From the NCBI GenBank assembly GCA_964016885.1, contig OZ024751.1:20708001-20772000 (forward strand): a stretch of 64,000 bases of DNA. The letters run 5' to 3'. Positions 4,768 to 63,408 of the stretch are shown piece by piece. The notes under the pieces were generated by a model that was not told the DNA's origin, made no database searches, and saw nothing but the letters and a program-made list of their open reading frames with translations. Made by a program: the position numbers and the translations under genes. The stretch's first letter is position 1; each line of letters begins with the position of its first letter. Source of the DNA: Eledone cirrhosa (lineage: Eukaryota).

Positions 4768-4957
4768 GGCGGTGGATTGGCAGTATCGGTAGAGGGTCGG
4801 ACGCCATGCTTTCCAGCATAGTTACGTCCCTTTACGATCTGAGTTCAAATCCCGCCGAGGTTGACTTTGCCTTTCATCCTTACGGGGTCGATAAAATAAA
4901 GTACCAGTAATGCACTGGGTAATTGCTGGCCTTGTGCCTAAAGTAGAAACAATTATT
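4768..4957 (+). mobile_element. tRNA-derived SINE (dominant family)
   Basis: Same A/B boxes and core, tandem to the previous copy. Confidence 0.9.
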
Positions 4958-9151: not shown

Positions 9152-9217
<66 letters not shown>

Positions 9218-9628
9218 TATTAAATAAATGGAAAACTATATTTATAAAACCATATTTATTTCATTATATATATTTCGGGGATATCATATTAACAATATGC
9301 TATGCCTTCATCAGACAAAATACAATATAAACAGTTTTATAGATAAATATATTCGACATACCGTAATAAACATCAACTTCATTTGAAGAGGTTTACGCTA
9401 GCAGTCATATTTATCTATAAAACTGTTTATATTGTATTTTGTCTGATGAAGGCATAGCATATTGTTAATATGATATCCCCGAAATATATATAATGAAATA
9501 AATATGGTTTTATAAATATAGTTTTCCATTTATTTAATATTGTAAATATACTCCAAATATTTGTCGAGTGCTTTTATATCAGTTATAAATATTTACTAGT
9601 TGTAACCCAACAATTTTAAATATAACTT

Positions 9629-10607: not shown

Positions 10608-10610
10608 AGT

Positions 10611-11048
10611 ATACGATATTAATAAATGGAAACTATATTTATAAAACCATATTTATTTCATTATATATATTTCAAGGATACCAAGTTACATTATGGTATG
10701 CCTTCATCAGACAAAATACAATATATAACAGTTTTATAAATAGACATTGACGTACCCTTTTAAAAATTGACCGTTGCGTTTGGAGGCCATCAGGATAGTG
10801 GTTTGTTTACTTTAGTAAGTCATAGTGTCTATTTATAAAACTGTTATATATTGTATTTTGTCTGATGAAGGCATACCATAATGTAACTTGGTATCCTTGA
10901 AATATATATAATGAAATAAATATGGTTTTATAAATATAGTTTCCATTTATTAATATCGTATATCTACTCCAAATATTTGTCGAGTGCTTTATATCAGTTA
11001 TAAAAATATTTGCTTGTTGTATCCCAACAATTTAAATAGAACTTTTGC
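10611..11048 (+). mobile_element. Family A fold-back element with two HHRs (10854-10918 +, 10654-10718 -)
   Basis: Arms ~10611-10748 / 10824-10961. tattttgt-CTGATGA-aggcataccataatgtaacttggtatcctt-GAAA-tatata-TA-atgaaata. GAGTGCT at 10982. Confidence 0.88.
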
Positions 11049-12186
11049 ATATATATAAGTATATATATACTGTATATATATACATACATGCATACATATA
11101 TATATATACATATATATTTATATATATATATACACACACACACGTGTGTGTGTAATTGCCAAAGGTTGTCATACCAACCAGGTTGATAAACAACAAGAGG
11201 AGCAACTGTGAAGTGGATAAATGCATGGATTGGCAATATGTGTGTGGTGGTGGTGGTGGTGGTGGTGGTGGTGGGGGGGGGGGGTGTTAGTGGTGATGGT
11301 GATGGTGGTTGTGGTGGTGGTATTGTAGTGGTGGTGATGATGATGGGATTAGTGGTGGTGGTAGTGTTGGTGGTGGTAGTGGTGCTGGTGATTGCGGTGG
11401 TTGTAGTAGTAGTAGTAGTGGTGGTGGTGTTAGTGTTAGTGGTGGTGGTGATGGTGATGGTTGTGTTGGTGGTTGTGGTGGATGTGGTGGTGGTGATGGT
11501 GTTGGTGTTAGTGGCGGTGGTGGTGATGTTGGTGGTTGTGGTGGTGGTATTGTAGTGGTGGCGATGATGATGGTAGTGGTGGTGAATGTGATTGTGGTGG
11601 TTGTGGTAATGGTGGTGTTGGTGGTGACGGTGGAGCCGATGAGGTATGGCTGTTGTTTTGTATCGGAAGAAAACAAAAAAAAATACATTCATTCCTCTCC
11701 TCCATCCACTCTCTTACTCACCCACTCTCCCACTCCCCTACTCACCCACTCCCCTACTCACCCACTATCCCACTCCCCCACTCCCCCACTCACCCAGTCA
11801 CCTACTGCCTCTCTACAATGTAAATATCAGCAATAGCAGGAACAATAACACCACTACTGGTCTCTCAAACTTATAAAAATAACAACCAATCTCCCCTCAC
11901 TCACATAATCAGCACATAATATATTTACTATGTTGTATACTTGTCTAATCAATTTGCTAACCGAATATACCTCGCTGAAGAGACCTAATAAGATTGAAGT
12001 ATGTCACTGGGTCGGTTTTAAGACAAGGTTCACTCCCACAACATGGTTTAAAGTTGTCTGAAAAGTCTTGAATCAGCTCAGGCATATAAGAATTTCTCTG
12101 AGTTATAAATATATTAAACATAGAAATGACTTCTACCGAACTAGAATTGTTTCATTCGTATGAAATCATCGTTTTTGTGTTTTTTC

Positions 12187-12800: not shown

Positions 12801-13231
12801 CAGGTACACATACATATATGCACGTATCAGTTTAGCGGACGCTTATTATAACGCCGCTTTGTTCGTTTGTAAACAAACTGAACAGCCTGAATTTTTATGC
12901 CGTACGGTGTTAAGGCAACCACGTCACCTTTTTGTTCAACACTGACACAGGAACGATGTACTAGTTTCAAGCTTGTTAGCTATCATCAGCACCGTATACC
13001 CATCTGCCAGATAGTTGAACGTTCGAAAGTATATACTTTCCTTATGAAAATTAACGGCTGAGCAGCCTAATTTGCATATCGAGTGAGCTAAGTCGGTCAG
13101 GCAAACCGAAAACGATAAGTTGAAATAAAATGAAAACGAAATTTCATTTCTCACTCTTAGTACGGCACTTACTTAAATGTAAGTATGTGTGTATACGTAC
13201 ATACATATATGTATACAGACGTACAGTAGCA

Positions 13232-15540: not shown

Positions 15541-15604
15541 TGTTCCAAGGCTCTGATACCATCAACACTATAAACACAGAGCTGGCATATCTAAGAACTG
15601 ACTA

Positions 15605-15660
15605 ACTGCCTGATGAGGTCATAGCCATTCAATGACTATCATCGAAATATATATAGCAGT
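15605..15660 (+). ncRNA. Minimal type I hammerhead ribozyme (family D, in a ~165-bp insert 15542-15706)
   Basis: actgc-CTGATGA-ggtcatagccattcaatgactatcatc-GAAA-tatata-TA-gcagt, followed by AATAAA. Confidence 0.88.
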
Positions 15661-15867
15661 AAATAAAGGATTATGAGTTCATGCAATTGACTTATGTTTC
15701 GTCACTATATATATATATATATACATATATATATAAATATATTGTTATACTTTTTGGGGGGGGGAGTCATGTTGCCAATAAGAAACACACGCCCTAGTTG
15801 CTTTCACTTCAATTTATTATAAATTTCGGGTTGGTTGGTTCCACAAACGGATGGTTGTTCATATATT

Positions 15868-15910
15868 GTCAAAGTTCTTTCGTCACACATTCTGTGACCT
15901 CTTCAGTGAC
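15868..15910 (-). ncRNA. Minimal type I hammerhead ribozyme in the PLE 3' UTR/pLTR
   Basis: Minus strand: gtca-CTGAAGA-ggtcacagaatgtgtgac-GAAA-gaac-TT-tgac. Confidence 0.8.
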
Positions 15911-16104
15911 TGGGATTCTTTTCTTTGTTTTGTGCTACTCCTTTGTTCTGTCCTACGACATCTTGTTTTTGTGTGTGTTGTGTGCTCAGTTTGCGCATGT
16001 GTTACATCCGGGTGTCTGTATGTGTTTTTATTTGTTTATGTATTTGTTTATTTACATGTTACTGGTTAGTTGTTTGTTCTATGTGTGTATGTTTCATGTT
16101 GTCC

Positions 16105-17630
16105 TTAATTATAAGTTGTGATGTTGCCATTCCATTCATGTCTTCTACTTAATTTTGGTTGCAGTTCATTTATGTTTATTGCCTCTGTGATTTGTCTAAA
16201 CATTGCGTCTTTTCTCTGTATAGAATCTATTTTTATTTCTGTTCTCTAATTTGCCCTTATGTTCTATTTTTATTTCTGTTCTCTAATTTGCCCTTATGTT
16301 CTATTTTAGCATGTTGGAGGAGTACTGATGAGTCTTTTCTATCTTGAAGTTCTCACCAGTGTTCATTTAATCGTTCTCCTATACTACGAGCTGTCTCACC
16401 TATGTACATTATATTCTTATTTTTACATTGTCCCTCAGTAGATATTATGCTATATACTATGTTTCTAGTTTTACAGTTAATATGGGGGCTTAGCTTACAG
16501 ATTATGCATTTCCTATCTATACAGGGAGGTCTTTGTAAAGAGTATGTATTACTAATAAGTGTTTTTATGGAGGTACCTGGTCTTTCCACTATCTTAATAT
16601 TTAGTTTAAGTTTATCTAGGGCCCTTCTAAATTTGTAAGCTAGTTCACCTCTAGGGGTTGTATTGATGAACATTACACTCTGGTATTTATTGCTATCATA
16701 CCATGAGTTTATTTTATTAACCTTATTCCTAGTTCTTTCTATTCTATTCCAAAATTTGCTCCCATACAAGGGGCAGGTCCCATTTGTATCATTATTTACA
16801 CCAGGGCGGTGGATTGGCAGTATCGGTAGAGGGTCGGACGCCATGCTTTCCAGCATAGTTACGTCCCTTTGCGGTCTGAGTTCAAATCCCGCCGAGGTTA
16901 ACTTTGCCTTTCATCCTTACGGGGTCGATAAAATAAAGTACCAGTAACGTACTGGGTAATTGATGGCCTTGTGCCAAAAGTAGAAACAATTATTTACAAT
17001 TTTTTCCCCATTTGGTTCTGGCTCCTCTATACACTCTGATTTTATCTCTCTGATTGTAACCAGAGAACTGCATACGTTGGATGAAGTGTTGTATGTATCT
17101 CTCTAGTTCTTTGGGGTTGCACATGCGGGACACGTTCCTCATCACCCTTACTAATTCCGCAATCAGTATGTTGATTTTGGTGTGATCCGAAACACCTGAG
17201 TTTCGGTGGATCAGGTATTTGGAAGTCATGGGTTTGGCATAATTGGAATGGAGGATTTGTTTTTTGTTATTAATGGTTTCTAACCTGAGCTCTGTGTCTA
17301 CTACAGGTAATCGATAGTTGCGGTGTTTGCTTGGGTAGTCTATAGTAACTTTGATACTCTGGTGGATGGAGTTAGCTATTTTCTGGATGCTTTCCATGGT
17401 GTTTTTCTCTAATTCCTGACTGTTCTCTAGTGGGGGTGTCTTAACTACGATGTTTATATCATCAACGTAGCGGGAGTACATTATCAGGGTTAAGAGATTG
17501 TCGTCTTCTAATTGTTCGTTAAGTTTTTTGTCCTACCATACCATAAATAGGTTAGCAATGTCACCTGCAATGCTAAGACCAATGGCTGCTCCCTCCTCTT
17601 GGGTAAATGTTTTTCCATTAAATTTGAACT
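16105..17630 (-). pseudogene. PLE reverse transcriptase C-terminal half + Cys-rich linker + GIY-YIG endonuclease; stops and a SINE insertion
   Basis: FKFNGKTFTQEEGAAIGLSIAGDIANLFM...RYVDD...FSGY; PCIDRKCIIC...NCKTRNIVY...YIGETARSIGERLNEH...RQITEA. Confidence 0.92.
16804..16992 (+). mobile_element. Full-length SINE inserted in the PLE ORF (TSD attatttaca)
   Basis: A/B boxes; attatttaca at 16791 and 16989. Confidence 0.92.
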
Positions 17631-17817
17631 TTGACAATATATGAACAACCATCCGGTTGTGGAACCAACCAACCAACCGGAAATTTATAATAAATTGAAG
17701 TGAAAGCAGCTGGTGCGTGTGTTTCTTATTGGCAACATGACCCTCCCAAGTATAACAATATCGGTTTCAACACACGTTTTCAGATAAAGAATCTTGCTAA
17801 ACAAATTCAGAAACGAA

Positions 17818-17912
<95 letters not shown>

Positions 17913-19881: not shown

Positions 19882-20079
19882 AACAAAGAAGGTGTGGTAA
19901 GATACCAGGGGGACCATAACGCACCAAAGTACTCGATATTTAGGATAGTAGAGTGGGTAATAAGAAAATAGTCAGAACCTCGACGGCTGAGCTTCGGCCG
20001 TTTCGACAGCTACATACGAACAGTTCGGATCTAGCTGTCGAAACGGCCGGAGCTCAGCCGTTGGGGCCCTGACTCTTTT

Positions 20080-20082
<3 letters not shown>
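19882..20082 (-). mobile_element. Family E fold-back element (tail on the left, hairpin ~19965-20082)
   Basis: The tail is the reverse homologue of 496-577, including AGTACTC at 19928; the arms are imperfect inverted repeats. Confidence 0.75.
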
Positions 20083-20165
<83 letters not shown>

Positions 20166-21064: not shown

Positions 21065-21262
21065 AATGTAATATCTCCACTATCCAGGAACCTCCAACCG
21101 TTAAGGTTTTCTTTTTTTTTCGGGTATGTCAATATTTATTTATAAAACATATCTGTATTTTATCTGATGAAAGCGCACCATAATTTGCCTTGGTTGCCCT
21201 TGAAATATGTATAATAAAATAAATATGGTTTTATAAATATAGTTTCCATTTATTAATATATT
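21065..21262 (+). mobile_element. Family A single arm with HHR (21156-21221)
   Basis: tattttat-CTGATGA-aagcgcaccataatttgccttggttgccctt-GAAA-tatgta-TA-ataaaata. The left boundary is uncertain. Confidence 0.8.
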
Positions 21263-21789: not shown

Positions 21790-22203
21790 ATATTAATTCA
21801 AAATATTAACAAAATAGATATTCTTGTGATCAATTATATTTTATTATACATACTTCAGAGGTACTGAATTAAGTTCAACAGTACGTCCTCATCTGATAAA
21901 ATAAAATGATACATGACATACCCTGACATGGTAGATGGTTAAGATTTAATCAAGGTAGTAAACATCTACCATATCAGGGTATGTCATGTATCATTTTATT
22001 TTATCTGATGAGGACGTACTGTTGAATTTAATTCAGTACCTCTGAAATATGTATAATAAAATATAATTGATCACAAGAATATCTATTTTGTTAATATTTT
22101 GAATTAATATTAATAATTCTGGAAAATATTCCACGTAGAGTGCTTCCAATCTATTGTAAAACTCATTCGTTGATGTACTCATTGAATCTTGTTTAACTCT
22201 TAA
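21790..22203 (+). mobile_element. Family C fold-back element with HHR (21997-22063)
   Basis: Arms ~21790-21941 / 21961-22110. tattttat-CTGATGA-ggacgtactg...cagtacctct-GAAA-tatgta-TA-ataaaata; the mirror core is mutated. GAGTGCT at 22138. Confidence 0.87.
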
Positions 22204-24872: not shown

Positions 24873-25830
<958 letters not shown>

Positions 25831-25833
<3 letters not shown>

Positions 25834-26224
25834 CAAAGAGATATTTAATTTGGTGGTAATTTAACAAATTTATTTATAACAGATTCGAAGCACTCCACAT
25901 GTTTCCTGGAGTATAATATCAATGCTATTAATGAATGGAAACTATATTTATAAAACCATATTTATTCTATTATATATATTTCAAGGGTACCAAAACTTTG
26001 GTGCACTCTCATCAGATAAAATACAAAATTTGTTTTATAAATAGTGACATACCCAGGAATCAGACCTTAACAGTTCAGGTTTGATGCCTAGGTATGTCAC
26101 TATTTATAAAACAAAATTTGTATTTTATCTGCTGAGGGCGCACCAAAGTTTTGGTACCCTTGAAATATATATAATAGAATAAATATGGTTTTATAAATAT
26201 AGTTTCCATTCATTAATATCATTG
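25831..26224 (-). mobile_element. Family A-related fold-back element; HHR intact on minus arm (~25962-26023), CTGCTGA mutant on plus arm
   Basis: Arms ~25920-26060 / 26085-26224; AGCACTC at 25889. Confidence 0.85.
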
Positions 26225-26262
26225 ATATATATATGTGTGTATGAGTGTGTGTGTGTGTGTGT

Positions 26263-27688: not shown

Positions 27689-27775
27689 GGATAACAAGGT
27701 ATCGTTTAAGGTAATTTAAGGTAATATATATATATTCTGCATATACATACATACATTTATATATATATATATATA

Positions 27776-28180
27776 AGAGTTCTATTTAAATTGTTGGGAT
27801 ACAACAAGCAAATATTTGGAGTAAAAATATGATATTAACAAATGGAAACTATAGTTATAAAACCATATTTATTTCATTATACATATTTCAAGGACACCGA
27901 GTTAAATTATGGTGTGCTTTCATCAGATAAAATATAATATAGATCAGTTTTATAAATGAATATTGACATACCCTTAAAGAATGCAACCATTACTGTTGAA
28001 CCGGGAGCTTCCAACAATAATGTTTGCATTCTGTAAGGGTATGTCAATATTTATTTATAAAACTGTTCTATATTATATTTTATCTGATGAAAGCACACCA
28101 TAATTTAACTTGGTGTCCTTGAAATATGTATAATGAAATAAATATGGTTTTATAAATATAGTTTCCATTTGTTAATATCG

Positions 28181-28185
<5 letters not shown>
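27776..28185 (-). mobile_element. Family A fold-back element with two HHRs (28076-28140 +, 27870-27934 -)
   Basis: ~165-bp arms. tattttat-CTGATGA-aagcacaccataatttaacttggtgtcctt-GAAA-tatgta-TA-atgaaata. The left tail has an internal deletion. Confidence 0.88.
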
Positions 28186-28266
<81 letters not shown>

Positions 28267-40717: not shown

Positions 40718-41317
40718 ATAAATGTTCGGTGAATACATACATACATATATATATGTGTGCATGTATGTATATATATATATACATACTATTGTACGTCTGT
40801 ATACATATATGTATGTACGTGTACATACTTATATTTAAGTAACAGCCGTTACTAAGAGTGGGAAATGAAATTTCGTTTCATTTTTTCCGTTTATCGTTTT
40901 CGGTGCACCCGGCCGATTACCCACTCGATATGCAAATTAGGCTGCTCAGCCGTTAATATGCATAAGGAAAGTATATACTTTCAGACGTTCAATCATCTGG
41001 CAGGAAGGTATACGTTGCTGACGATAACTAATAAGCTTGAAACTAGTACAGCGTTCCTTGTCAGTGTTGATCAAACGAGCAACGATGGTTGTTAGACACT
41101 TCGGCTTAATACGGGATGTTTGTTTACAAACACACTGAGCATTATAATAAATGTTCGTGAATACATACGTACATATATATATGTGTGCATGTATGTATAT
41201 ATATATATACATACTACTGTACGTCTGTATACATATGTGTATGTACGTATACATACTTATATTTAAGTAACAGCCGTACTAAGAGTGTGAAAATTTCGTT
41301 TCATTTTTTCCGTTTAT
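40718..41317 (+). mobile_element. Family F retrozyme-like repeat (~1.4 units, ~429-bp period)
   Basis: Direct repeats start at 40718 and 41147; the element ends cattttttccgtttat|(AT)n. Confidence 0.8.
41013..41053 (+). ncRNA. Minimal type I hammerhead ribozyme
   Basis: cgttg-CTGACGA-taactaataagctt-GAAA-ctag-TA-cagcg. Confidence 0.85.
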
Positions 41318-41446: not shown

Positions 41447-41646
41447 NNNNNNNNNNNNNNNNNNNNNNNNNNNNNNNNNNNNNNNNNNNNNNNNNNNNNN
41501 NNNNNNNNNNNNNNNNNNNNNNNNNNNNNNNNNNNNNNNNNNNNNNNNNNNNNNNNNNNNNNNNNNNNNNNNNNNNNNNNNNNNNNNNNNNNNNNNNNNN
41601 NNNNNNNNNNNNNNNNNNNNNNNNNNNNNNNNNNNNNNNNNNNNNN
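41447..41646. other. Assembly gap (200 N)
   Basis: N run. Confidence 1.
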
Positions 41647-41840
41647 TCAGGTTTGAGGTTCACCACTGTATAGAGCTGGTCTATTCCGTATGGTCAATCG
41701 TAATGCAATAATATAGAGAGTACTCAACGTAAAGCAGTTCAACCGTCTTTGTTTTTGTAGTTGGTGGTGCTATTACGGAGTTAAATATTATAATGAAATG
41801 ACAGGAGGCTGGATTTGTGTAAATCCTTGAAAGGTTTATT

Positions 41841-41898
41841 ATACTATGATCATTTCAATGACCGGGTTCCGTATGAATCCGGTGATATCATCAGGTAT
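41841..41898 (-). ncRNA. Minimal type I hammerhead ribozyme (distinct family)
   Basis: Minus strand: atac-CTGATGA-tatcaccggattcatacggaacccggtcatt-GAAA-tgatca-TA-gtat, then AATAAA. GAGTACT lies downstream at 41719-41725. Confidence 0.85.
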
Positions 41899-42122
41899 TC
41901 GAAATATAATACGTGAATGTAATAGGTAAAATCCATGGGGCTGAAAATCGAGACCCGAGGGCGACCGCTATTCTGTTCCTTCAACCTCAGCCGGTCGCCC
42001 TGGAGCGTATGTATCTATATATATGTAGATACATATACATACATACACATATGTATCTATATATATATAGATACATATACATACATACATATATATATAC
42101 ATACATATATACATACCTATAT

Positions 42123-44531: not shown

Positions 44532-44539
<8 letters not shown>

Positions 44540-44872
44540 ATAAATGGAAAACTATATTTATAAAACCATATTTATTTCATTATATATATTTCGGGGATAT
44601 CATATTAAGCTAGCTAAACCTCTTCAAATGAAGTTGATGTTTATTACGGTATGTCGAATATATTTATCTATAAAACTGTTTATATTGTATTTTGTCTGAT
44701 GAAGGCATAGCATATTGTTAATATGATATCCCCGAAATATATATAATGAAATAAATATGGTTTTATAAATATAGTTTTCCATTTATTTAATATTGTCCAA
44801 ATATTTGTCGAGTGCTTTTATATCAGTTATAAATATTTACTAGTTGTAACCCAACAATTTTAAATATAACTT

Positions 44873-46879: not shown

Positions 46880-47073
46880 ATGTGTGAAGTAATTCCGTCG
46901 GAAAAGTCCAGGAAAAAAGAGTGCTCTATGTAAGCAACAGAGCTTAATTATTATTATGTAATAAACAACATAAGGCAATTATTCCATTTACCAGTGGTTT
47001 CTTAAAAGCAAAAGGTTTTGCTTTTAAGAAACCACTGGTAAATGGAATAATTGCCTTATGTTGTTTATTACAT

Positions 47074-47080
<7 letters not shown>
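46880..47080 (-). mobile_element. Fold-back element (perfect hairpin ~46948-47080, tail on the left)
   Basis: ~65-bp perfect arms containing GAAAccactggTA; GAGTGCTC at 46919. Confidence 0.75.
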
Positions 47081-47217: not shown

Positions 47218-47372
47218 GGTAGAACACTGGAAGGTAATATCCATAATGGTAGAGCACTCAGTCCATGGGACGAGTTAGGTAGAAGTAGTAACACAACAGT
47301 CAGTTCACCATACCGGGAACAATTGTGAAACAAATGTTTTCGGTATGGTGAACTAACTGTTGGGTTACCACT

Positions 47373-47373
<1 letters not shown>
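47218..47373 (-). mobile_element. Small fold-back element (hairpin 47283-47373, tail on the left)
   Basis: Imperfect ~43-bp arms; AGCACTC at 47253. Confidence 0.65.
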
Positions 47374-47445: not shown

Positions 47446-47890
47446 AAAGTTATATTTAAATTGTTGGGTTAACAACGAGTAAATATTTATAACTGATATA
47501 AAAGCACTCAACAAGTATTTGGAGTATATTTATGATATTAAATAAATGGAAACTATATTTATAAAACCATATTTATTTCGTTATATATATTTCAGGGATA
47601 TCATATTAACAATATGTTATGCCTTCTTCAGACAAAATACAATATAAACAGTCTTATAAATAAATAGATACGACATACAATATTTTTTACTGCCAAATAT
47701 TTTTTACTGCCAAATCAACCTCCCAAATGCAAGGTGATTGAAAGGTATGTCGTATCTATTTATTTATAAGACTGTTTATATTGTATTTTGTCTGAAGAAG
47801 GCATAACATATTGTTAATATGATATCCATGAAATATATATAACGAAATAAATATGGTTTTATAAATATAGTTTCCATTCATTTAATATCA
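47443..47890 (-). mobile_element. Family A fold-back element with two HHRs (47784-47849 +, 47574-47639 -)
   Basis: tattttgt-CTGAAGA-aggcataacatattgttaatatgatatccat-GAAA-tatata-TA-acgaaata; AGCACTC at 47503. Confidence 0.88.
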
Positions 47891-47904
47891 TATATATATA
47901 TATA

Positions 47905-48173
47905 TTTAAAAGTTAAACAAGATTCAATGAATACATCAAAGAATGAGTTTTACAATAAATTGGAAGCACTCAACTAGGAGGTTTTCCAAAGTTATTAATA
48001 TTAATTCAAAATATTAACAAAATGAATCTTAACCATCTACTATGTCAGGGTATGTCATGCATCGTCTTATTTTATCTGATGAGGACGTACTGGTGAACTT
48101 AACGCAGTACCTCTGAAATATGTATAATAAAATATAATTGATCACAAGAATATCTATTTTGTTAATATTTGAA

Positions 48174-48180
<7 letters not shown>
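47905..48180. mobile_element. Family C element (reversed tail + forward arm), HHR 48068-48134 (+)
   Basis: tattttat-CTGATGA-ggacgtactg...cagtacctct-GAAA-tatgta-TA-ataaaata; AGCACTC at 47965. Confidence 0.85.
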
Positions 48181-48223
<43 letters not shown>

Positions 48224-50391: not shown

Positions 50392-50737
50392 TGCCTCCTC
50401 GTTATCGAGTATGGCCATTGCACGATATACCATTATTAATAATTATTAATTAATTCTATCGTGCAATGCCTGTGCGTGAAGATATTTTTTAAAGTGAGGA
50501 AAGACTGTGCACTGAGCCAATCCCACTCTCTGAGAGACAGTAGCTATAACCCGAAAAGAAGAAAAGATCAACATCATCGGTAACTACTGAGCCGCAGGTT
50601 ATATATCGGAGTTATCCCAGTTTCCTGAGTTGCCTTCTCCTTGAAGAATGCCCTGACAAAGGCTAGGGGTCCTTCACACCCAGTGGTTTAACCGCGCGAT
50701 CGGGTATCCAGCCCGACTATTTCTATGTCCCCGCGCA
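50385..50737 (-). mobile_element. Second bipartite RTE-derived family
   Basis: Shares ccctagcctttgtca, gagagtgggattgg, gcacaggcattgc and tactcgataacgag...gcagccatc with the 36411 family, but lacks the zinc-finger middle. Confidence 0.7.
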
Positions 50738-52559: not shown

Positions 52560-52690
52560 AGCTGAGTAAACTGGAGCAAAGTGAAATAAAGTGTCTTGCT
52601 CAAGGAAACAACAGCTCAGCCGGTCCGAGAATTGAACTCACAACCTTTCGATTGCAAGCCCAATGCTCTAACCACTAAGCTATGCGCCTT
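52560..52690 (-). mobile_element. tRNA-head SINE (second family)
   Basis: Reverse strand: aggcgcatagcttagtggttagag...gagttcaattctc...ttccttgagcaagacacttta. Confidence 0.75.
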
Positions 52691-53683: not shown

Positions 53684-53753
<70 letters not shown>

Positions 53754-53754
53754 G

Positions 53755-54023
53755 TAGACGTTCTATTTAAATTGTTGGGATACAACAAGCAAATATTTTT
53801 ATAACTGATATAAAGCACTCAACAAATTATTGGAGTAAAAATACGGGAGCTTCCAACAGTAATGGTCGCCTTCTTTAAGGGTATGTCAATATTTATTTAT
53901 AAAACTGCTCTATATTATATTTTATCTGATGAAAGCACACCATAATTTAACTTGGTGTCCTTGAAATATGTATAATGAAATAAATATGGTTTTATAAATA
54001 TAGTTTCCATTTGTTAATATATC

Positions 54024-54025
<2 letters not shown>
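53755..54025. mobile_element. Family A element (reversed tail + forward arm), HHR 53918-53982 (+)
   Basis: Same HHR as 28076; AGCACTC at 53814. Confidence 0.86.
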
Positions 54026-54062
<37 letters not shown>

Positions 54063-62947: not shown

Positions 62948-63283
62948 CTAGGGCGGGTAAAATTCCCGAGATCCATGGACGAGTTCTCTCCAGTGGTCTC
63001 TGTCCCTCATCATCGCTGCCATGTCCTGTGTCTCCAACAGACCAGTGTCTGTCCTTAGGGCATCAACATACGTTAACCTTGGTCTTCCTCTTCCAGTGTG
63101 TCCATGTAGGGGCTCCCACAGGAGCACTGAGTGCAATGTCAACTCTGGATGTCGGTGAGCATGTCCAGCTAACCTCACTCTCCTCTGTGTCACTTTTGAG
63201 AGGCTCCCATACAGCTCTGAGTTTTTCATCCTCAGTGTATACTGATTAATGTTCAGAGCCATCCTCAGCATTCTCGTGTCATA
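62948..63283 (-). pseudogene. RTE-clade LINE 3' end
   Basis: YDTRMLRMALNI...LAGHAHRHPE...GRGRPRLTYVD...DRDHWR. Confidence 0.87.
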
Positions 63284-63406
63284 TTTGGGGAGGGTTATAT
63301 TGTTATACCCATCCAGATGGTGGATGGGTATAACAATATGACCCTCTCCAAATATGACAATATTTGTTTCAACACACGATTTCATATAAAAACCCTTGCA
63401 AAACAA

Positions 63407-63408
<2 letters not shown>
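63277..63408 (+). mobile_element. Miniature fold-back related to the Neptune-like element terminus
   Basis: Hairpin 63277-63359. The tail gtttcaacacacgatttcatataaaaacccttgcaaaacaaa matches 17764-17803. Confidence 0.75.

Follow-up and report, generated by a model that had tools for sequence, protein, structure and literature searches.

The locus considered here, a Penelope-like element (PLE) lying within a stretch of 64,000 nucleotides of Eledone cirrhosa DNA (the window), raises the question of whether self-cleavage by a hammerhead ribozyme can set the point at which an inverted copy of the element's own terminus begins. The element spans positions 15739-17818 and is enclosed by two (TA)n tracts; along the minus strand it runs from a 5'-truncated reverse transcriptase (RT) through a zinc-finger-like linker and a GIY-YIG endonuclease (EN) to a terminal repeat that contains a minimal hammerhead motif. 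Joined head to head against the RT arm is an inverted, tailed copy of the terminal repeat (17626-17818), and the arm alignment confirms that this copy starts at gaactttgac (17626), as a preliminary description had stated. That description further took the inversion to start at the ribozyme site and supposed that the second cDNA might have run off a hammerhead-cleaved 5' end. The evidence points elsewhere: the breakpoint lies near the predicted cut and not at it. We put a probability of roughly 0.7 on a reading in which uncleaved RNA served as template for two cDNAs, primed one on each target strand and joined through microhomology, yielding a 5'-truncated insertion of an endonuclease-bearing (EN+) PLE into (TA)n. 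The features on which the argument draws are the following:

15706..15742, no strand: (TA)n target, left flank, from TRF and a print of the flank; its final ATAT overlaps the element end
15739..15877, minus: arm of the 3' terminal repeat (pLTR), tail-less, the portion duplicated in the inverted copy, from the arm alignment
15868..15910, minus: predicted minimal type I hammerhead, from descriptor scans
15911..16104, minus: 3' untranslated part and upstream pLTR, between the ORF stop and the hammerhead, limits approximate
16105..16460, minus: GIY-YIG endonuclease, broken; Pfam GIY-YIG at E 0.0042, under the curated cut-off, and tblastn to P0002 and P0008
16470..16525, minus: short zinc-finger-like linker C-x4-C-x2-C-x7-C, from the translation, limits approximate
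16791..16998, plus: secondary SINE-like insertion (16801-16988, 188 bp) with a 10-bp target duplication (16791-16800 and 16989-16998)
17008..17628, minus: C-terminal half of the RT (motif 4, YVDD near 17458-17469, thumb), 5'-truncated at motif 4, from tblastn
17626..17629, no strand: inversion junction, with 3 nt of microhomology (17626-17628, a conserved aromatic RT codon) and at most 4 nt, from homologue residues
17626..17761, plus: inverted 5'-truncated pLTR copy that lacks the catalytic core and begins 6 nt 5' of cut position 17632
17762..17818, plus: 57-nt tail, at one end only, probable ORF start
17818..17900, no strand: (TA)n target, right flank, from TRF

Inverted-repeat detection was swamped by the (TA)n tracts, and masked self-BLAST was used instead; it pairs the arms 15739-15877 (minus) and 17626-17761 (plus) in inverted orientation with 5 mismatches per 132 aligned columns, besides small indels (E 3e-46). 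The loop between them had been described as holding 1.5 kb of RT-EN coding sequence. By tblastn, RT and EN homology is indeed collinear over about 1.5 kb (16105-17628), with the GIY-YIG and RT regions in one ORF, but the loop measures 1748 nt and the coding is interrupted. Further traits support the assignment of the element to PLEs with an RT, a GIY-YIG endonuclease and a hammerhead motif in the terminal repeat. Its pLTR is inverted and tailed, EN+ PLEs having direct or inverted pLTRs with an optional tail; the pLTR carries a hammerhead sequence motif by descriptor match; and the RT appears telomerase-related, both through its 66% identity to P0001 and through the telomerases that rank high in Foldseek comparisons of the P0001 model. 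The endonuclease-bearing remnant retains the HxxxxH pattern, and the CCHH histidines are present. On the other side of the left (TA)n tract, and sharing it end to end with the element, lies a plus-strand hammerhead fragment of another family (15545-15705), which resembles the 25398-25798 family around the ribozyme.

This copy is old, inactive and ordinary: it has suffered two stops, frameshifts and the insertion of a SINE. The GIY-YIG region carries a stop at 16353-16355 and, from inspection of the frames and TRF, a 37-bp tandem duplication at 16226-16307, and the RT remnant has an in-frame stop at 17533-17535 and a frameshift near 17000-17008. The protein nearest to the RT remnant among those found is P0001 of Octopus vulgaris (E 2.7e-66), and the 64-kb window holds no further PLE ORF. 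The SINE-like repeat that interrupts the element recurs elsewhere in the window with 10 other matches of at least 100 nt, among 17 BLAST hits; it is about 190 bp long and abundant (e.g., at 4768, 9895, 22475, 34937, 43654 and 49486), and words resembling A and B boxes can be picked out by eye. Other leftover features are a weak tRNA match at 52617-52689, which scores 31.5 bits with several pairs broken and is likely to be a pseudogene or the head of a SINE, and a 200-N assembly gap at 41447-41646.

The predicted hammerhead comprises a 4-bp stem I, the CUGAAGA core (15906-15900), a 6-bp stem II, GAAA (15881-15878) and a GAAC helix III. Core numbering and the cut rule for hammerheads are established knowledge, and they put the predicted cut between 15872 and 15871; the base that follows it (15871) is equivalent to 17632 in the right arm. 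The right arm hence starts at offset -6 from the predicted cut (17626 against 17632), just where it had been placed earlier, about 6 nt before the cleavage point; once microhomology is allowed for, the breakpoint precedes the cut by 2-6 nt on the 5' side. A register with the cut 1 nt further downstream was rejected, as it increases the distance to the arm start. Since Rfam at its gathering score finds zero hammerheads in the window, and only a single tRNA-like match, the ribozyme calls depend on a hand-made descriptor. Stems I and II occur in the minimum-free-energy fold, yet the folding energy of the ribozyme region is no better than that of shuffled sequences (z = -0.81). Helix III of this hammerhead is non-palindromic. 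Four other helix III words were checked, and of these three form exact palindromes and one is off by a wobble. Minimal hammerheads are described in the available text of PMC4209133 as cleaving weakly in vitro and needing dimers, with opposite-strand pairs lying 100-700 bp apart.

The junction itself offers the most direct evidence on the template. In the RT frame it reads S-K-F-K-F-N-G, with S-K-F in the window against H-x-[FYC] in homologues. Among 280 fetched relatives, the junction residues could be scored in the 200 with a scorable motif 4: histidine occupies the position of the window's serine in 193 of these, and the residue after it is K, Q or E in none of the 193 (nor in any of 119 in a first set). 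The residue following this variable position is conserved as aromatic, so that 17626-17628 are plausible as microhomology and 17629 is possible as a third codon base; this accords with the microhomology to RT sequence reported earlier, at 3 nt and at most 4. Because K, Q and E are absent from the homologues at that site, 17630-17631, and probably 17629, would derive from the repeat upstream of the cut. Judging from these RT codons, which are read from proteins (the nearest 66% identical) and not from an intact DNA copy, two or three junction bases must have been copied from an uncleaved repeat, as the RT arm cannot supply them. The chance that untemplated bases would match the repeat is 1/16 to 1/64.

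These bases bear directly on the idea that hammerhead self-cleavage in the upstream repeat made the RNA 5' end and thereby fixed the inversion point. The arm start, only 6 nt from the cut or 2-3 nt with the microhomology allowed for, speaks for this idea, and so does the fact that an upstream repeat cut at the hammerhead would yield a template of roughly the observed arm length. However, bases 5' of the cut could not be present in a cDNA made from a cleaved 5' end, and the strict form of the model therefore fails at the 17626 locus; rescuing it would take extra bases added by chance or a later conversion between the arms. The non-palindromic helix III and the dispensability of cleavage in vitro (PMC11167929) also stand against it. 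With the distribution of junctions considered next, we regard it as highly improbable.

Beyond this single locus, the window is rich in comparable structures, and the following were mapped:

9207-9550, 10610-11057, 21790-22110, 25398-25798, 25912-26233, 27775-28188, 44532-44830, 47480-47898, 47998-48181 and 53746-54030: small hammerhead fold-backs
63277..63408, no strand: mini-hairpin of a sister subfamily, with 39-bp arms and a tail but no hammerhead; 132 bp, 81% like the 15739-17818 terminus

A descriptor with a stem I of at least 4 bp gives 22 hits, 16 of them in 11 inverted structures; with the 63277 hairpin, placed by homology, these provide 12 junctions. Left out are the six hits that lack an inverted arm (12958, 15656, 21214, 41049, 41844 and 35790, the last a likely chance hit in a microsatellite) and four fold-backs without a hammerhead (19960, 46949, 47283 and 50416). 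The offsets of the 12 junctions from the cut are -129, -121, -97, -97, -95, -92, -86, -28, -6, +29, +46 and about +88. None of the 12 is at the cut, a count still compatible with up to about 22% of junctions lying there; nine retain sequence 5' of the cut, and seven extend at least 80 nt upstream. Just one of these junctions comes from the exact 15739-17818 family, the other 11 being from non-autonomous families or from the sister subfamily mapped by homology. At least one junction would fall within 6 nt of the cut by chance with P 0.52 over the observed span (0.41-0.69 over other spans). The search for an excess of breakpoints at the cleavage site that the preliminary description had called for, run on these 12 window junctions, thus finds none, and its run-off proposal is supported neither by this count nor by the uncleaved-repeat bases.

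The same junctions speak to a different role for the ribozyme, that of a roadblock. A folded, protein-bound hammerhead—either uncleaved, or cleaved with its halves still paired and the RT jumping the nick—would stall the RT, so that short arms would stop just before stem II, a few bases to the 5' side of the cut. At the element the arm stops short of the 3' base of the 6-bp stem II by at least 4 nt, a second junction falls within loop II (at -28), and the Anolis ribozyme cleaves solely when its protein is present (PMC11167929). Yet the ribozyme span holds only two of the 12 junctions against 2.5 expected, and a hammerhead was read straight through by seven short arms and by the element's own long arm, making such stalling unlikely. 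The broader proposition that a protein-bound or cleaved hammerhead stops the second cDNA in this lineage, with inverted arms piling up around the cut genome-wide, strikes us as similarly doubtful; the single junction at -6 to -2 is compatible with it.

The fold-backs that supply most of these junctions deserve description on their own account. Ten small, non-coding, head-to-head hammerhead fold-backs of several families in 64 kb constitute a very dense population that resembles miniature non-autonomous PLEs. Their layout (head-to-head, tailed, with a hammerhead in the terminal repeat) is the one seen in the element, as had been noted. By BLAST, no match is found between the other hammerhead fold-backs and the 15739-15910 terminus; their link to the element is therefore only architectural, and the distance from the cut to the end is about 55-60 nt in the hammerhead hairpins against 132 in the element. 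The hammerhead hairpins are likely PLE-derived. Of three pairs of related small copies, two have long arms with a shared starting point, at -137/-138 and at -131 to -134; the paired starts are 9402 with 44609 and 27999-28002 with 53844, and one pair starts at a 6-nt palindrome. This recurring start 131-138 nt upstream of the cut could possibly mark the RNA 5' end of the non-autonomous copies, i.e., a possible transcription start. The inverted arm 53746-53845 is almost tail alone, with a 2-nt overlap at the junction.

Single hammerheads whose helix III is palindromic or nearly so, and that have no inverted partner within 2.5 kb, occur at 12949-12997, 41010-41058, 41837-41902 and 21156-21221. 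Fold-backs lacking a recognizable hammerhead occur at 19960-20084, 46949-47080 (98% perfect), 47283-47373 and 50416-50468, and three of these four end directly in (TA)n; they are possibly the termini of other PLE families. The only hairpin that matches the element terminus by sequence is that at 63277. It had been described as a 130-bp mini-hairpin of the same terminus, and it is present at nearly that size; it proves, though, to represent a sister subfamily without a hammerhead, and by homology its inner end maps to a point about 88 nt beyond the cut position on the downstream side. On its left the hairpin directly adjoins a minus-strand open frame (62950-63276), which we take from its peptide pattern to be similar to a LINE ORF2 C-terminus.

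How the element itself was formed is constrained further by its asymmetric tail, the 57 nt of 17762-17818 being limited to the right arm and absent from the left. This tail probably codes for the beginning of the ORF: a frame from the ATG at 17737 is broken in this copy and open in the 63338 copy, where it resembles the N-termini of three of 139 relatives, all within the first 13 residues and by a motif picked post hoc. Against whole proteins, the tail peptide does not score beyond shuffles, its best score being reached by 8/60 and 10/60 of them.

One explanation of such head-to-head arms invokes a single strand that, during or after insertion, folds back or switches template at the 3-nt microhomology and so copies its own terminus. 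For head-to-head palindromic junctions, the available text of PMC3846280 favors self-priming on an antisense template, and microhomology is present here. The one-sided tail is nevertheless something that a copy of the left end could not contain, so that a longer template would be needed; furthermore, the junction has no palindrome and the arms lie 1748 nt apart. We consider fold-back priming improbable at this locus.

The preferred two-cDNA reading would proceed differently. The RT-EN protein would cut both strands of the (TA)n target and prime one cDNA on each. RT would start at two sites near the ORF start, one per cDNA, leaving one end tailed and the other tail-less, and for both cDNAs the template RNA would be uncleaved at the hammerhead. 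The first cDNA would extend for about 1.7 kb, through the ribozyme and into the upstream ORF, while the second would halt after about 190 nt; their 3' ends would then anneal at a short microhomology and be filled in. The nearness of the junction to the cut would be a coincidence, aided at most by RT pausing just before stem II. Taken together, these steps would account for the junction as well as for the arms being head to head and the tail one-sided. The joining of the cDNAs is a step that we infer ourselves, and it resembles LINE-1 twin priming. Several of the remaining steps have published counterparts. Inverted 5'-truncated copies, one-sided tails and (TA)n targets are described for PLEs in the available text of PMC8557442 and PMC3846280. 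Likewise, the available text of PMC11167929 reports that the purified Anolis PLE protein cleaves and extends both target strands, that RT starts at two internal sites which delimit the tail, that unprocessed RNA is used with insertion unchanged in hammerhead mutants, and that zero RNA-seq reads end at the cut; these in vitro data concern a Poseidon element, of a lineage different from that of 15739-17818.

The available text of PMC8557442 treats the function of the hammerhead in endonuclease-bearing PLEs as an open question, and junction mapping provides a cheap test of that function. The result obtained here is a small negative one: the arms in the window were mostly copied through uncleaved ribozymes, agreeing with the in vitro data. 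Were the hammerhead to stop the second cDNA after all, the junctions would be an in vivo footprint of its function in these elements. Papers dealing with the RT lineage, or with inversions that break at the hammerhead cut, did not turn up in a search that was mostly of literature outside subscription papers, Repbase and Dfam, and such families may already be filed in one or other of these two databases.

The insertion layout is already published; the more lasting lead is the protein family. A family profile retrieves 1595 clusters at E <=1e-30, of which the best 150 were examined. The family is hardly detected by Pfam (RVT_1 at E 0.0042 in one of five proteins); a PDB sequence search with it returns only weak prokaryotic RT matches, and an Atlas search only generic RT/GIY-YIG clusters that carry no clade names. 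Throughout the fetched P0001-P0281, RT motifs 3 and 4 are separated by a conserved insertion of about 70 residues (about residues 345-445 of P0001) that displays invariant-looking R, W and E residues; it lies upstream of the truncation point, in a region lost from the 15739-17818 copy, and is known from the relatives. In the AlphaFold model of P0001 (pLDDT 86.8) the insertion forms a helical module at pLDDT 92-98. Foldseek searches with this model place telomerases at ranks 1, 2, 4, 5 and 6, while by structural Z scores telomerases are tied with other polymerases, whole-model searches being too coarse for the fold of the insertion.

Counts of individual positions separate the family from the canonical examples. 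The RT3-RT4 spacing is at least 100 in 145 of 146 homologues (about 132 aa, with quartiles of 131-133), against 59-63 in the five canonical examples that were counted. In motif 4, 198 of 200 relatives carry isoleucine, for the most part as GGAIG or GGPIG, against methionine in all nine canonical examples in the available text of PMC8557442; at the DKG motif, 72 of the 74 relatives scored have TDKSG. After the CxxC of the linker the spacing is 7 residues in the window and likewise in 62 of 93 homologues (6-9 in 81 of 93), compared, by counts made by eye from PMC8557442, with about 7 in Nematis and 23-25 in Neptune (three examples each). The earlier label of Neptune-like consequently stands in part: the (TA)n target and the CxxC linker agree with it, whereas linker length, the RT4 motif and the RT3-RT4 spacing depart from the three published Neptune examples. 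We see roughly even odds, judging from these sequence traits, that the element comes from an unnamed, widespread PLE lineage with a C-terminal GIY-YIG, a hammerhead and an insertion of about 70 residues at the position of the telomerase IFD. The RT family as such may be an unclassified lineage, as judged by comparison with the counted published examples. A separate clade, if real, would alter the picture of canonical PLEs with a C-terminal EN as lacking a fingers insertion, and would offer a point of comparison for the telomerase IFD.

Set against the known systems, as far as the available text of the cited papers describes them, the element shares most with the canonical C-terminal EN+ PLEs (Penelope/Poseidon, Neptune and Nematis; PMC8557442, PMC3846280). 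Common to both are the order of RT followed by GIY-YIG, a hammerhead in the pLTR, an inverted 5'-truncated copy, a one-sided tail overlapping the ORF start and an AT-rich target; they differ in motif 4 (G-x-[AP]-M-G against GG[AP]IG here), in having DKG against DKS here and in the tail (30-40 nt against 57 nt), and an IFD or fingers insertion is absent from the canonical forms in PMC8557442. Neptune, which is paraphyletic according to the same source, is alike in its C-terminal EN with a CX2-5CxxC linker, its microsatellite target and its CCHH histidines; the microsatellite target is not diagnostic of Neptune, because Naiad and Hydra have it too. It is set apart by a full-length linker of 23-25 against 7 here, by another motif 4 and by having no fingers insertion. 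Nematis also has the CX2-5CxxC linker, in a short, reduced version with a spacing of about 7 (PMC8557442), as in the element, but its motif 4 is GLAMG, it has no fingers insertion, and its three members in the RT alignment take their names from nematodes. Hydra differs in its CxCX5C linker and absent CCHH (PMC8557442), against C-x4-C-x2-C and HxxxxH here. Eight PLE clades are listed in the available part of a preprint (10.64898/2026.07.22.740005). PAc, the Poseidon element of Anolis carolinensis (PMC11167929), resembles the element in its AT-rich target and in a tail that lies downstream of the hammerhead, bounded by two termini close to the ORF start, though it belongs to another clade, and a CxxC linker is not described for Penelope/Poseidon in the available text. 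Naiad/Chlamys and the telomerase RT, finally, resemble the family in carrying an insertion at the IFD position, between RT3 and RT4; Naiad/Chlamys have an N-terminal EN, mostly no hammerhead and an insertion of 20-40 aa, whereas here the EN is C-terminal, a hammerhead motif is present and the insertion measures about 70 aa.
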